NCBI GenBank assembly: GCA_035530875.1
Contig: DATKUB010000057.1
Span: 22,540-86,539 of the forward strand
From: Candidatus Nanopelagicaceae bacterium
GTDB taxonomy: Bacteria; Actinomycetota; Actinomycetes; Nanopelagicales; Nanopelagicaceae
DNA length: 64,000 nucleotides
Reading direction: 5' to 3'
The translations under genes and the position numbers were made by a program. The notes below the pieces were generated by a model. The model saw nothing but the letters and a program-made list of their open reading frames with translations. It did not search any database and was not told the DNA's origin. Positions within the stretch are counted from its first letter, which is position 1, and every line of letters starts with the position of its first letter. This document shows, one piece after another, positions 19,018 through 28,110 of this stretch.

Positions 19018-21060
19018 ATGATGGATCCAAGGCACGCAATTCTTTTCGAGCCGGTCACCATTGGTCCGAAGGTTCTGCCAAACCGGTTCTATCAAGTTCC
19101 ACATGCATCGGGGTTCGGCGCTGCCAAGCCGCGTGCCCATGCGGCATTTCGCGCCATCAAGGCAGAGGGTGGTTGGGGCGGCGTGTGCACCGACTATGCC
19201 CCAGTATCACCGGACTCGGACGAGACGCCTGCCGTTGCTTCTGACATCTGGGATGCCGAGGACGCTCGCCGGCTGGGTCTGGTGGCTGAGGCTATTCATG
19301 AACATGGCGCACTGGCTGGGATCGAGTTGCATCACGGTGGCTCCTCGTCGCCCAACGGTGAATCACGTTATCCCCGCATCGCACCCAGCCAGTCTGCAGG
19401 GACCTCGATCTATTCGAGTTTGCCGCGCGAGATGAGCCTTGCCGACATCGCACGGGTTCAGAAAGATTTCGTAGAGGCGGCCAAACGGGCCCGCGACGTC
19501 GGGTTCGACATTGTTTATGTCTATGGCGCACATGGGTATCTGATGACCCAGATGCTCTCTTCCGTCACAAACCGGCGCAGCGATTCTTACGGTGGTCCGC
19601 TAGCAAACCGCGCCCGCTTCCAGATCGAGACGCTGGAGAAAGTTCGCGCGGCCGTAGGGGATGACTGCGCGATAGCGATCCGCACGGCAGTCGCGCCAGG
19701 TAAGGATTTGTTGGGCATTGACGCCGAAGAGATGCTCGAATTCGTACGCATGGTGGATCCGGTTGTAGACCTGTTTGACGTCAACGTCGGCAGTTGGCCG
19801 GAGGACTCGGGAACTTCAAGATATTTTTCCGAGGGACATCAATTGCCGTGGACATCTCGAGTACGCGAAGCGACGTCGAAAGTCATCGTTGGCGTTGGGC
19901 GCTATACGAATCCCGACACGATGGCCGCACTTATTAGGAGCGGCAACTTCGATCTGATTGGGGCTGCCAGGCCGGCAATCGCCGATCCGTTTCTGCCCAA
20001 CAAGATTCGGGAAGGCAGAGTCGATGAGATCCGCGAGTGCACTGGGTCAAATGTCTGCATTCTTAAAGAGGAGACGTTCCATCACGTTGGTTGTATCCAA
20101 AACGCAACCGCTGGCGAGGAGTATCGCAGGGGCTGGCACCCCGAGCTCTACCTCAAACCGCAATATCCGCAGCGCCCGGTTCTCGTCGTCGGTGGGGGGC
20201 CGGCGGGAATGGAGTGCGCCATGGTTCTTGGAAAGCGCGGTTTCGAGGCGGTGCACCTGGTAGAGGCTGGAGACCAACTTGGCGGCAAACTCAGGTGGAC
20301 CCGCGATCTTCCAACGCTCGGTGATTGGGGACGAGTAATCGATCACCGCGTCGTCGGACTTGCCAAACTGCCGAATGTCGAAGTGATTCTCGGACGTCGA
20401 CTCACCGCAGCCGAGGTCCTTGACTACGGCGCCGAAATCGTGGTCATTGCTACCGGCTCTTCTTGGTGCGGCGACGGCACCCAACCCATTCATCTTCCTC
20501 GGATCGAAGGCGCAGAGCACGCTCTAACGCCGGAGCGAGTGATGGCCGGCGAGCGACCTGCAACCGGTCGGGTCGTTGTATACGACGCGGATGGTTACTA
20601 CGTCGGCCCTGGAATCGCCGAGCTGCTTAGCCTCGAAGGTTATGAGGTTCACTTAGTCACTCCTCAAGAGAAGATTTCGCCGATCTCGGACGCGTCACTT
20701 GAAGGTGACATGCTCCGTAAGCACCTTCATCAACTAGGAATTGCGTTCCACGTTGACGTCGCCATTCACGCGATCGACGGAGACCGGGTGCGCGGGGAGA
20801 CCACCTTTGGCGATCCGTGGTCACTTGAGACAGACGGCGTGGTTTTGGTCACACAACAATCGAGCAATGACGAGTTGTACCGCCAACTCAACTCCGATTC
20901 GAGCAGACTTTCCGAAGCCGGAATCCGTGCCGTACACGCGATTGGTGATGCGGTTGCGCCACGGATTCCGTCAGAGGCGGTTTTCGACGGTCACCGGCTG
21001 GCCCGTGAGATCGAAAGCCAGAACCCAATGGTGCCCACCTCTTGGCGGCGTGAGCCCTGA
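19018..21060 (+). CDS. Trimethylamine/histamine dehydrogenase - DgcA/StcD-family NADH:flavin oxidoreductase
   Basis: 680 aa with a GGAGGG SD. The N-terminus ILFEPVTIGPKVLPNRFYQVPHASG and CIQNATAGEEYRRGWHPE closely parallel TMADH. A C-terminal ADP-binding fold VVGGGPAGMECA is present. Confidence 0.85.
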   Translation: MMDPRHAILFEPVTIGPKVLPNRFYQVPHASGFGAAKPRAHAAFRAIKAEGGWGGVCTDYAPVSPDSDETPAVASDIWDAEDARRLGLVAEAIHEHGALAGIELHHGGSSSPNGESRYPRIAPSQSAGTSIYSSLPREMSLADIARVQKDFVEAAKRARDVGFDIVYVYGAHGYLMTQMLSSVTNRRSDSYGGPLANRARFQIETLEKVRAAVGDDCAIAIRTAVAPGKDLLGIDAEEMLEFVRMVDPVVDLFDVNVGSWPEDSGTSRYFSEGHQLPWTSRVREATSKVIVGVGRYTNPDTMAALIRSGNFDLIGAARPAIADPFLPNKIREGRVDEIRECTGSNVCILKEETFHHVGCIQNATAGEEYRRGWHPELYLKPQYPQRPVLVVGGGPAGMECAMVLGKRGFEAVHLVEAGDQLGGKLRWTRDLPTLGDWGRVIDHRVVGLAKLPNVEVILGRRLTAAEVLDYGAEIVVIATGSSWCGDGTQPIHLPRIEGAEHALTPERVMAGERPATGRVVVYDADGYYVGPGIAELLSLEGYEVHLVTPQEKISPISDASLEGDMLRKHLHQLGIAFHVDVAIHAIDGDRVRGETTFGDPWSLETDGVVLVTQQSSNDELYRQLNSDSSRLSEAGIRAVHAIGDAVAPRIPSEAVFDGHRLAREIESQNPMVPTSWRREP

Positions 21061-21086
21061 CGGGATGAGATTGGGACATTTAGCTG
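21052..21086 (+). repeat. Cassette-boundary motif copy c0 (degenerate)
   Basis: GAGCCCTGACGGGATGAGATTGGGACATTTAGCTG. It overlaps the TGA stop (21058-21060) of the upstream flavoprotein gene and shares CATTTAG with c1. Confidence 0.55.
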
Positions 21087-21357
21087 ATCGATAGACCTGT
21101 TCGGTGTCACGCTAGCTGGTTGCAGATGGCGCTGCGCGTCTTGCTTCGCCATGCGAATTGTTTGTCCATGCGAAATCGGTCTAGCATCGGGGGGAGCGTC
21201 GACTGTGGCGTCTTTCTCATTCGAAACGAGGTTTGCGGCCCGTGCCCCTGTTACAAATTCATCTATTCGAAGGCCAGCCAGCTGGTGCTTTCGGCAGTAC
21301 GCCAGCCCAGGATTACGAGATTGCTGCGACCAGCGCAGCAGGACTGGCGGGCTGACC

Positions 21358-22122
21358 ATGGCCGACCTGAGACAGCTCGCGGGTAAGCGGATCGTCCTGA
21401 CCGGCGGAGCGGCCAACATCGGCCGTGCCTGCGCACTGCTGATGGCGCGCCACGGCGGGCAGATTGTCATCGGCGACATCGATGTTGCCGGAGCCGAGGA
21501 GACGGCCACTCTCATCAAGAGTGAGGGGGGCACGGCCTCGGTCGTGCCGACCGACGTCACCTCCGAGGAGGCGATTAAGAACCTCATCGACACCGCCGCG
21601 GAGCGGCTAGGTGGACTTGACGTCGGCTTCTTCAACGCCGGACTCCAGCGCTCGGGCGCCGTAACCGACTTCTCCGTCGAGGAGTGGGACGCAATGTTCG
21701 CCGTCAATCCGCGTCACTGCTTCCTCGCTGCTAAGCACCTGACGCCGCATCTGCGAGACAAGGGCGGTTCGATCGTGCTGACTTCCTCGGCCGCTGCCTT
21801 CAAGGGAGGCCCGGGCATGACGGGGTACTCCGCCTCTAAGGGCGCAATCATCGGCTTCGGCAAATCCCTCGCAGTCGAGCTCGCTCCCAGCAAGATCCGG
21901 GTCAACGTCATTTGCCCCGGTTGGATTGACACACCGTTCAACCAGCCTTCAATTGATTACATGGGCGGCCGAGAGTTGCAGGAAGAGGCTGTCCGGTACG
22001 TCGTTCCCCTAGGACGACAAGGCGCGCCTGAGGAGGTCGCTGGCGGCGTTCTGTTCCTTGCCTCAGATGCCTCGTCCTACATGACCGGTCAGACCCTGAT
22101 CATTGATGGTGGCGTGGTCTGA
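21358..22122 (+). CDS. Short-chain dehydrogenase/reductase (SDR)
   Basis: ORF 21151..22122 trimmed to the ATG at 21358 (MADLRQLAGKRIVLTGGAANIGRA). TGxxxxxG, NAG and YSASK catalytic motifs. Visibly GC-richer than its neighbours. Confidence 0.85.
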   Translation: MADLRQLAGKRIVLTGGAANIGRACALLMARHGGQIVIGDIDVAGAEETATLIKSEGGTASVVPTDVTSEEAIKNLIDTAAERLGGLDVGFFNAGLQRSGAVTDFSVEEWDAMFAVNPRHCFLAAKHLTPHLRDKGGSIVLTSSAAAFKGGPGMTGYSASKGAIIGFGKSLAVELAPSKIRVNVICPGWIDTPFNQPSIDYMGGRELQEEAVRYVVPLGRQGAPEEVAGGVLFLASDASSYMTGQTLIIDGGVV

Positions 22123-22130
22123 TCAATCAG

Positions 22131-22180
22131 CAAGTCACGCAAACTCAACCATCGTCAAGTCACGCAAACTCAACCATCGT
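22131..22180 (+). repeat. Perfect 25-bp x2 tandem duplication
   Basis: CAAGTCACGCAAACTCAACCATCGT occurs at 22131-22155 and 22156-22180, 9 nt after the SDR stop. Confidence 0.95.
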
Positions 22181-22229
22181 AAAGAGCCTTGAGGTCAAAT
22201 ATTTGACCGTGGCTGCCAGTTTCGGCCCG

Positions 22230-27276: not shown

Positions 27277-27345
27277 GAGTGGAGTATCTCAGTAGTCTAA
27301 AACCATGAGAGAGTCTCGAGAATTGGGCTTTTCTAGGCCAATCGT

Positions 27346-27378
27346 GGGCACGAAGAGATAAAACTGGGTACTGGGAAA
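27346..27378 (+). repeat. Cassette-boundary motif copy c5
   Basis: GGGCACGAAGAGATAAAACTGGGTACTGGGAAA. Confidence 0.8.
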
Positions 27379-27448
27379 CACTTATTCATCCGGCCTGAAT
27401 CAGGTGGGCGTGCTTCAATGAACAGAATAGGACCCTAGGTTCTTGCGG

Positions 27449-28045
27449 TCAGGAGGCTGGGTCGTTGGCCGATCCTGTGACCTGTTCATTAGAGACGACT
27501 TGGGTCACCAGATCGCGGTACGCCCGATCTACCTGCCCCGCGACAGTCACGATCGTTCGAGTGCGCGGTCTGCTGGCCACGACCTCGATCAGTCTCTCGT
27601 ACATGCCAGGCAGCGCGTTGACGCCGCCGCTGCGCCCGAGCAGGGCCGCAGCGTCGCGATGCTCGGCTGTTTGCGGGGCTGCAGAGCGCCGGACGAAGCG
27701 GTCGACAGCCTCCTGCGGGTCGCTCAGCAGGGCAATTTCGACAAACTCTGCGCCAACATCGTGGCAGAGGTGCTCCAACGAAACTACGAAATCCGGTCGA
27801 CCGAGGAATTGGGGAATCACGACGTCCCGACCGGCCGTCAGCTGTACCCGCGCCATCTCCAATGCCATGCGCCTTGCGATGAGACCGGCCTCGGTTGGGT
27901 CATCGAGCCAGTGACCGAGCATCGCACGAACGGTGTCGATGTCCAGGGCTAGCGCCAACGGGTGGTCGTCGACGTACATCCGCGCCAGTGTCGATTTTCC
28001 GCTACCCGGCGCCCCGTTGATCAGTATCAGGCGAGTCATATCCAT
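27449..28045 (-). CDS. P-loop NTPase, small-molecule kinase-like (AAA_33 / chloramphenicol-phosphotransferase-like fold)
   Basis: 198 aa. Walker A LINGAPGSGKSTLA sits at the extreme N-terminus, and the size and layout fit small-molecule kinases. Confidence 0.65.
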   Translation of the reverse strand: MDMTRLILINGAPGSGKSTLARMYVDDHPLALALDIDTVRAMLGHWLDDPTEAGLIARRMALEMARVQLTAGRDVVIPQFLGRPDFVVSLEHLCHDVGAEFVEIALLSDPQEAVDRFVRRSAAPQTAEHRDAAALLGRSGGVNALPGMYERLIEVVASRPRTRTIVTVAGQVDRAYRDLVTQVVSNEQVTGSANDPAS

Positions 28046-28070
28046 ACTCTACGAGCCTGCGCACAGTGGT

Positions 28071-28110
28071 GCGCCCGAAGAGATACGAACTCTGTGTGCC
28101 AGTTGGGTAT
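28071..28110 (+). repeat. Cassette-boundary motif copy c6 (right half degenerate)
   Basis: GCGCCCGAAGAGATACGAACTCTGTGTGCCAGTTGGGTAT. The first 15 nt match the consensus and the remainder carries insertions. Confidence 0.6.

Follow-up and report, generated by a model that had tools for sequence, protein, structure and literature searches.

Additive genomic islands gain their cassettes at tRNA or tmRNA hotspots, and direct repeats of the tRNA 3′ end separate one cassette from the next, an arrangement described in Alteromonas, Ca. Methylopumilus and others (PMC4898812, PMC10872708). Site-specific accretion is likewise documented for cis-mobilisable elements (CIMEs), with ICESt1/ICESt3 and Streptomyces pathogenicity islands as examples (reviewed in PMC5704250). 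Islands of Prochlorococcus hold tycheposons and their remnants as tandem elements with partial tRNAs (bioRxiv 10.1101/2020.12.28.424599), and the ssrA-specific islands of Dehalococcoides are horizontally acquired and integrated at the small-RNA gene ssrA (PMC3146451). Here we describe an array of small gene cassettes, bounded by co-oriented copies of a non-coding repeat, in a metagenome-assembled genome (MAG) of Candidatus Nanopelagicaceae. The analysis covered a 64-kb window, that is, the whole stretch of 64,000 nucleotides (nt), and independent assemblies in ENA and Logan data contain the identical sequence.

In fresh water, Nanopelagicaceae (the acI lineage) rank among the most abundant bacteria, and their genomes are streamlined, with few recognisable mobile elements. 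We consider it probable that the array is an additive genomic island, formed by serial site-specific integration at attachment (att) sites derived from a tRNA, and that its cassettes are either relics or mobilised in trans. The locus would then represent a concrete route by which Nanopelagicaceae gain flexible genes, namely a hotspot of mini-cassettes tagged by tRNA-derived sites, and the presence of a near-identical site in Betaproteobacteria points to widespread helper-dependent movement of single accessory or defence genes. Should the sites prove to be no more than relics, the locus would be an additive island of the ordinary kind.

Repeat copies and cassettes in the window

A first-pass annotation had described seven co-oriented copies (c0–c6) of a motif of ~33 bp separating gene cassettes, and the positions and sequences that it gave for all seven proved exact. 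The repeat itself held up for c1–c6: when both window strands were scanned semi-globally with the consensus, these six took the highest scores (c5, 28; c3, 28; c2, 24; c4, 22; c1, 17; c6, 14), outscoring every other site, the best unrelated one reaching 12. By contrast, c0 scored 8, level with several random sites; what speaks for it is its position and a CATTTAG that it has in common with c1. Earlier, c0 was proposed to be an attachment site at the flavoprotein gene's 3′ end, but statistically it cannot be told from background. Copies c2–c5 fit a 29-nt consensus with at most three mismatches, for which 100 shuffles of the sequence gave 0 matches. No additional copy was detected on either strand in the other ~57 kb of the window, which also holds no inverted partner of the motif. 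The array thus contains six genuine co-oriented copies inside 7 kb, plus the doubtful c0, and each of the six separates unrelated genes or operons.

Alignment of all copies showed the unit to be longer than first described, at ~60 bp, and to consist of three blocks: a core, an arm and a weaker extended block. The additional similarity between c3 and c4 to the right of the motif, also reported in the first pass, is real (77.8% identity over 63 nt), and weaker equivalents align in c2, c5 and the betaproteobacterial copies introduced below. To the left of the window cores, we found no conserved sequence beyond a marginal match between c1 and c4 (p ~0.05, uncorrected). The interval, the repeat copies and the cassette genes are as follows, in window coordinates.

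13152..28123, no strand: accessory interval from ctaF to pirin; a metabolic block (two GcvT/DAO genes, TetR, OYE flavoprotein), then the cassette array
21052..21086, + strand: c0, doubtful copy; overlaps the stop codon of the flavoprotein gene
21358..22122, + strand: SDR gene, G+C 0.62; may be a cassette or part of the neighbouring metabolic block
22357..22389, + strand: c1, decayed, with core TGCGCCCGAAGAG and a degenerate arm; the minus-strand GNAT gene has its 3′ end 27 nt away
22416..22982, − strand: GNAT acetyltransferase, cassette c1–c2
23027..23085, + strand: c2, with core, arm and extended block TGCCGTAGCC
23168..23977, + strand: nucleotidyltransferase (AadA_C / ANT-like), cassette c2–c3
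24003..24062, + strand: c3, best-conserved copy; its left edge is the start of the homology with contig L047, and here Logan contig L027 ends and L025 begins
24396..26328, + strand: AbiEi-like antitoxin and NTP_transf_8 pair, cassette c3–c4; module of 85% nt identity on contigs L047 and L048
26504..26561, + strand: c4, with core, arm and extended block; the L047 homology stops ~10 nt past the arm (~26548)
26557..27276, − strand: second GNAT, cassette c4–c5
27343..27400, + strand: c5, with core, arm and extended block
27449..28045, − strand: AAA_33 / zeta-toxin-like P-loop kinase, cassette c5–c6
28067..28110, + strand: c6, terminal copy; homology to relatives resumes ~14 nt to its right

The five or six cassettes measure 0.7–2.5 kb and hold one gene or operon each, with three genes on the minus and four on the plus strand. 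Domain annotation bore out the earlier gene calls (SDR, GNAT, nucleotidyltransferase, AbiE-like pair, GNAT and kinase), and composition does vary among cassettes (G+C 0.46 to 0.62). PADLOC returned no convincing defence-system match for any of them. Our screen for recombinase domains covered open reading frames (ORFs) of at least 150 aa, shorter ORFs, and a few in overlap with called genes, lying outside it; none of the screened ORFs in the window carries an integrase, transposase or resolvase domain, in agreement with the first-pass annotation. As separate observations, the two GNAT cassettes, tried as paralogues of each other, were rejected as such and are not close paralogues, and a stretch of ~25 nt (CAAGTCACGCAAACTCAACCATCGT) is perfectly duplicated in tandem just past the SDR stop codon, at 22131–22180.

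Anatomy of the unit and its likeness to tRNA-Arg

Reverse-complemented, the ~18-nt core (TGGTGCGCCCGAAGAGAT) reads as a tRNA-Arg-like 3′ end. In that orientation it covers the CCA, the discriminator, the acceptor strand and the T-stem 3′ strand of a tRNA-Arg-type gene, its first 11 nt being the reverse complement of CGGGCGC-A-CCA. To its right stands the arm, AAAACTGGGCACTGGGAA, which consists of two adjacent ACTGGG(C/A) heptamers. Past the arm come ~8 variable nt and then the weaker block, TATTTCACTGCC-like or TATTTCACTGCCTTGA-like. An ACTGCC-like block lies ~21 nt beyond the heptamers, and the arm region (ACTGGGCACTGGGAA...ACTGCC) measures ~40 nt in all. An integrase or an accessory protein could plausibly bind the heptamers and the ACTGCC-like block. 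In c2, an identical C-to-T change is present in both heptamers (23043–23056; ATTGGGC ATTGGGA, where other copies have ACTGGGC ACTGGGA), and the two half-sites may be evolving in concert.

Copy c6 departs from this plan. Its first 19 nt (TGGTGCGCCCGAAGAGATA) are identical at 19/19 positions to the betaproteobacterial consensus, and after the core it continues with ACGAACTCTGTGTGCC, giving a T-arm-like AGAG-ATACGAA-CTCT where the arm would stand. Several other contigs bear sister copies in which the core leads on into canonical tRNA sequence. The copy at 6905–6966 of L001 scores 25.1 bits against the Rfam tRNA model and retains an intact acceptor stem and T-arm; 4262–4310 of L011 aligns to the reverse complement of Escherichia coli argQ, tRNA-Arg(ACG), from the CCA through the anticodon loop; and the copy of L003 contains GGTTCGAATCTCTTCGGGCGCACC. 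In betaproteobacterial copies, conservation halts exactly at the TGG (CCA) end. Because the sister copies run on into genuine tRNA sequence, the core is, on the alignments, a fragment of a tRNA-Arg 3′ end, and the arm is not tRNA. Direct repeats derived from a tRNA 3′ end thus lie between the cassettes. If a host tRNA-Arg gene was the source of the core, it would be expected to end in ...CTCTTCGGGCGCA.

Searches for other signatures at the copies were negative. ARAGORN with lowered thresholds gave noise only, no Rfam family matched the motif at either gathering or E-value thresholds, and E. coli genomes gave no match to the tRNA-like fragment of L011, a very short query. A conserved hairpin, proposed earlier as a check, was not found: 150-nt single-stranded DNA (ssDNA) folds around c0–c6 gave z-scores of −0.59 to +0.80. 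A scan of the copies for promoter and terminator consensus was equally empty, in line with the earlier view that the motif is neither. Some identities tried for the unit were set aside. A group II intron 5′ end (GTGCG..., prompted by a unit start of GTGCGCCC) was rejected as GTGCG is not conserved (L002 has GCGCG) and intron domains are absent; CRISPR was ruled out by the spacing; and a Tn7-like end by the lack of tns genes and of inverted ends in the window.

Shared modules, variable neighbourhoods and sister sites

Homology between contigs breaks at the repeats. The AbiE module of the window (24003–26548) recurs on contig L047 (4495–7038) at 84.75% identity over 2,551 nt; the similarity sets in with the left edge of the c3 core and runs to ~10 nt past the c4 arm, with unrelated flanks and neighbouring genes on the two contigs. 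The same cassette therefore occurs in a second context with its breakpoints at the repeats, which supports the earlier proposals that the motif marks cassette boundaries and that breakpoints between genomes would fall there. At two arm positions (AAAAC versus AAATC; GGGA versus GGGT), the genomes differ from each other, yet within each the left and right sites agree, a pattern consistent with exchange or conversion between sites. The cores of the window and L047 are only 56–75% identical, more diverged than the cargo. Homologues of the AbiEi-like protein are mostly actinobacterial; one of 90% identity (P0122) is encoded on short contigs, the longest 2,501 bp, in keeping with the 2,500 bp from c3 to c4. 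On contigs L051–L053, which are without the motif, the AbiE pair adjoins a gene for a 206-aa Phage_integrase protein. A further break concerns the Logan contigs (SRR8554503), which part inside c3 with a 30-nt overlap (L027 end, 5328–5360; L025 start, 1–35, corresponding to window 24003–24040). Because this overlap is a unique 30-mer within the genome, the break is suggestive of an assembly-graph branch stemming from population or strain variation.

The interval between ctaF and pirin is a hotspot, as the first-pass annotation had suggested in proposing tandem integration. In the closest relatives (pirin 88–90% identical), it is either a 450-nt spacer (L028 and L029) or holds an AAA_14/DUF4143 gene and an MNT-HEPN pair (L034–L043), and in an 82% relative (L031) an MFS transporter lies between the two genes. 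Cassette content at the same locus thus varies among related genomes. None of these intervals contains the motif. Homology to relatives restarts ~14 nt to the right of c6, and the whole 13.15–28.12 kb stretch is therefore accessory. The spacer of L028, otherwise empty, has four tandem repeats of ~22 nt (GGCGGGGTTGCTCACCTCGAGC) at 9565–9660 and an inverted partner (GAGCAACCCCGCC) at 9885–9925, a different repeat family at the same hotspot. The metabolic block at 13192–21060 of the window is missing from the closest relatives. In it, two divergent GcvT/DAO-type genes, which are dimethylglycine/sarcosine-oxidase-like and share inverted stretches of nucleotide similarity, flank a TetR gene, and the block then ends with an OYE and pyridine-nucleotide-disulphide-reductase flavoprotein. 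Elsewhere in the window, a thiamine pyrophosphate (TPP) riboswitch (62618–62723, − strand; Rfam RF00059, 59.4 bits) stands upstream of a thiamine-biosynthesis cluster with a DAO-family ThiO-like gene, ThiG and TMP-TENI.

The site also occurs in another phylum. A strict degenerate pattern of the motif, for which we estimate ~0.1 chance matches in 596 Gb from its information content, matched in three betaproteobacterial MAGs (a member of the Burkholderiales, a Ca. Gallionella and a Ca. Nitrotoga), a rare motif with 3 of 185,579 species representatives. A slightly looser pattern returned 20 metagenome contigs, ~12 of them true family members. All true members also have 11 nt upstream (TGGTGCGCCCG) that the pattern did not demand. 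Core and arm are almost invariant across the three MAGs and the ~12 contigs; flanks and cargo differ. The betaproteobacterial units adjoin tRNA-Arg fragments and bound small cargo modules, and the cargo at motif-bearing loci comprises an HNH nuclease with an AAA ATPase, toxin–antitoxin-like pairs, a trypsin-like protease and an acyltransferase. A plasmid collection, a phage collection and IMG/VR held no match to the motif. In four of the sister copies (L021 1246–1347 in original coordinates, L019 127–236, L011 2260–2374 and L001 6830–6966), the motif is the right arm of an imperfect palindrome of ~115–130 nt, centred on a terminator-like hairpin rich in GC (ssDNA z −3.3 to −6.1; L021, L019 and L011b); the window copies have no such left arm.

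At six loci, one minus-strand operon, a different one each time, is enclosed by the motif (site A) and another conserved site (site B). Site B (TCCCCGTCCAAGTAACACGGGGGGCTACGGATACAT) is ~35–60 nt long with a 6-bp hairpin and lies at the opposite end of the cassette from the motif, upstream of the minus-strand operons. Its positions, with the motif on the + strand, are:

L002 3711..3768: site B
L003 4164..4221: site B
L005 3575..3635: site B
L012 1556..1593: site B
L019 1370..1405: site B
L020 6072..6119: site B

Neither the window nor the plasmid and phage collections contained site B; it was found once in viral sequence, on the prophage-like contig L057. Other phage-like contexts are L018, which has an inovirus G2P gene, and L020. 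On the latter, a ComEC-like gene (3040–4161, motif on the + strand) is seemingly truncated after ~335 aa, and downstream of it follow the motif, cargo genes and phage-like genes (tape-measure-like, terminase-like); L020 may thus be a prophage or island inserted into comEC.

Serial integration weighed against other explanations

Under the additive-island reading, small circular DNA modules would have integrated serially at one site, and the repeats would be the attachment-site junctions left behind. Each insertion into an existing site would regenerate a site on either side, so that repeated insertions would give a co-oriented site–cassette–site–cassette array in which cassette genes could lie on either strand. 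Internal junctions would keep the core and an element-derived arm, and c6 would be the target-derived half-site, with its core kept and T-arm-like sequence in place of the arm. As the cassettes are without a recombinase, they would be relics, or would be moved only by a tyrosine recombinase supplied in trans, in the manner of CIMEs. The whole array probably reached the ctaF–pirin hotspot as a block, since in relatives this position lacks both a tRNA gene and the motif.

Several observations weigh against this account. No recombinase was found in the 64-kb window or at any of the ~16 motif-bearing loci, and ARAGORN and Rfam found a tRNA gene neither in the window nor in the ctaF–pirin interval of relatives; at the array end, where an intact target tRNA gene would be looked for, c6 is a mere ~28-nt tRNA fragment. 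Among window copies, c6 alone keeps the TGGT (CCA) end, its T-loop (TTCGTAT) is non-canonical, so the tRNA-likeness could be partly accidental, and the cores of c2–c5 have diverged further than their arms. The small size of the cassettes is unusual. Some betaproteobacterial loci have an inverted partial copy ~60–75 nt upstream, around the hairpin, or beyond the cargo (L003), which is unexpected for a simple attL/attR pair, and it is unusual for integrase arm sites that a non-coding site of ~36 nt should be nearly identical in Actinomycetota and Betaproteobacteria.

The absence of a tRNA gene and of a helper, the small cassettes, the near-identity across two phyla and the inverted partial copies leave room for a dedicated cassette system, which we regard as a possible but doubtful alternative. 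The unit would in that case be the site of an active, undescribed system crossing phyla, in which a dedicated recombinase encoded elsewhere would recognise the tRNA-Arg-derived core and the ACTGGG-repeat arm, and integrase-less mini-cassettes of 0.7–2.5 kb (defence, resistance, toxin–antitoxin) would be shuffled within arrays and between genomes; in function, such a system would be analogous to integrons, with double-stranded sites derived from a tRNA. The earlier claim of an undescribed system was nevertheless too strong, given that the core is a tRNA-Arg 3′-end fragment and partial-tRNA repeats have already been described for islands. That no recombinase was found at any locus would also suit inert 40–60-bp repeats that act as portable homology, with RecA-dependent gain, loss and shuffling of cassettes after DNA uptake and no dedicated enzyme. 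Left and right sites look homogenised within a genome, as gene conversion would leave them, and the additive-island literature often invokes recombination at hotspots (PMC4898812). However, repeats this short and 80–90% identical to one another are poor RecA substrates, they are strictly co-oriented, and the arm is near-invariant over two phyla while the cores drift, which argues for constraint by a binding protein rather than neutral decay. We therefore judge this mechanism unlikely. A dispersed repeat of the REP (repetitive extragenic palindromic), MITE (miniature inverted-repeat transposable element) or ERIC (enterobacterial repetitive intergenic consensus) type, clustered by chance and with no part in cassette movement, would account for the imperfect palindromes of some betaproteobacterial copies and for the single copies beside housekeeping genes in L008 and L016. 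It is very unlikely to account for a rare motif that has no window copy outside the 7-kb array and forms no hairpin there, at which cassette homology breaks exactly, and beyond whose supposed terminus the sequence is itself conserved.

Relic ends of a DDE transposon, for instance one homing next to tRNA genes as Tn7-like elements do, with the ACTGGG heptamers as transposase-binding repeats, appear a shade less probable still. The unit starts with TG, L003 has its inverted partial copy beyond the cargo, and the arm resembles the TnsB-binding repeat of Tn7 (GACAAAATAGTTGGGAACTGGGA); yet no transposase or tns-like gene was found at any locus, there is no inverted partner in the window, each copy has a single cluster of binding sites, and the outermost 18 nt are tRNA sequence, better suited to an att core than to a transposon terminus. 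A cis-regulatory DNA or RNA element common to accessory genes (operator, 3′ untranslated region element or terminator) might be read from the right-hand gene, which is on the minus strand with its 3′ end near the motif at 10 of 14 betaproteobacterial loci and three window copies. But the copies are co-oriented next to genes on both strands, the motif stands at 5′ ends as often as at 3′ ends, and homology breakpoints sit at it; with no promoter or terminator consensus, Rfam match or stable predicted fold, such a role is highly improbable. As for a true integron (a cluster of attC sites lacking integron integrases, CALIN) or Xer/dif-dependent modules, the cargo is of the integron-cassette type (GNATs, a nucleotidyltransferase, a toxin–antitoxin pair) with one gene or operon per interval. 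The integron analogy fails, however, on four diagnostics: no intI gene was found among window ORFs of at least 150 aa, though a CALIN may lack one; the boundaries are devoid of attC cores, as first reported, the sole RYYYAAC...GTTRRRY pair in 20900–28300 lying within GNAT coding sequence at 22738–22816; the copies form no ssDNA hairpins; and the genes, on both strands, are not co-oriented with the array. For Xer/dif, the region has no XerD-arm-like TTATGYNAART, and the motif, read from its sequence, has neither dyad symmetry nor palindromic arms. Both possibilities are essentially excluded.

Returning to serial integration at tRNA-derived sites, the resemblance to described systems is partial in each case. 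The array shares with additive islands the co-oriented partial-tRNA repeats at boundaries, the variable cassette sets at a fixed locus, the occurrence of the same cassette in different genomic backgrounds and a cargo of resistance, toxin–antitoxin and metabolic genes. It differs in having no tRNA gene at the site, no integrase nearby, a non-tRNA arm of ~40 nt that is conserved across phyla, and cassettes of only 0.7–2.5 kb. Mobilisation in trans is possible for CIMEs (PMC5704250) and is one of two possibilities for the cassettes here; CIMEs, however, are usually decayed ICEs (integrative and conjugative elements) or IMEs (integrative and mobilisable elements), many kilobases long and beside a functional element and a target gene, whereas here no helper element is in view and five or six mini-modules are stacked. 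With tycheposons the array has in common a streamlined planktonic host and tandem elements parted only by partial tRNA, as well as the pattern of islands in which older remnants are pushed inward and partial tRNAs are scattered; unlike it, tycheposons have a tyrosine recombinase of their own and lie next to an intact tRNA gene, and the cassettes here are much smaller. Integron arrays are alike in architecture, as rows of single-gene or single-operon cassettes bounded by recombination-site-like repeats with GNAT, toxin–antitoxin and resistance-type cargo, and unlike in that the array has no IntI or attI and no attC cores or hairpins, uses both strands and has a linear, tRNA-derived site. The ssrA islands of Dehalococcoides are a further case of a horizontally acquired island tied to a small-RNA gene. 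They are reportedly tandem and separated by repeats of ~20 bp from the end of ssrA, and are said to differ in that each has an integrase and adjoins an intact ssrA gene. The array thus probably represents a kind of island already known, set apart here by a locus with no tRNA gene and no nearby recombinase, and by a site that recurs in Betaproteobacteria.

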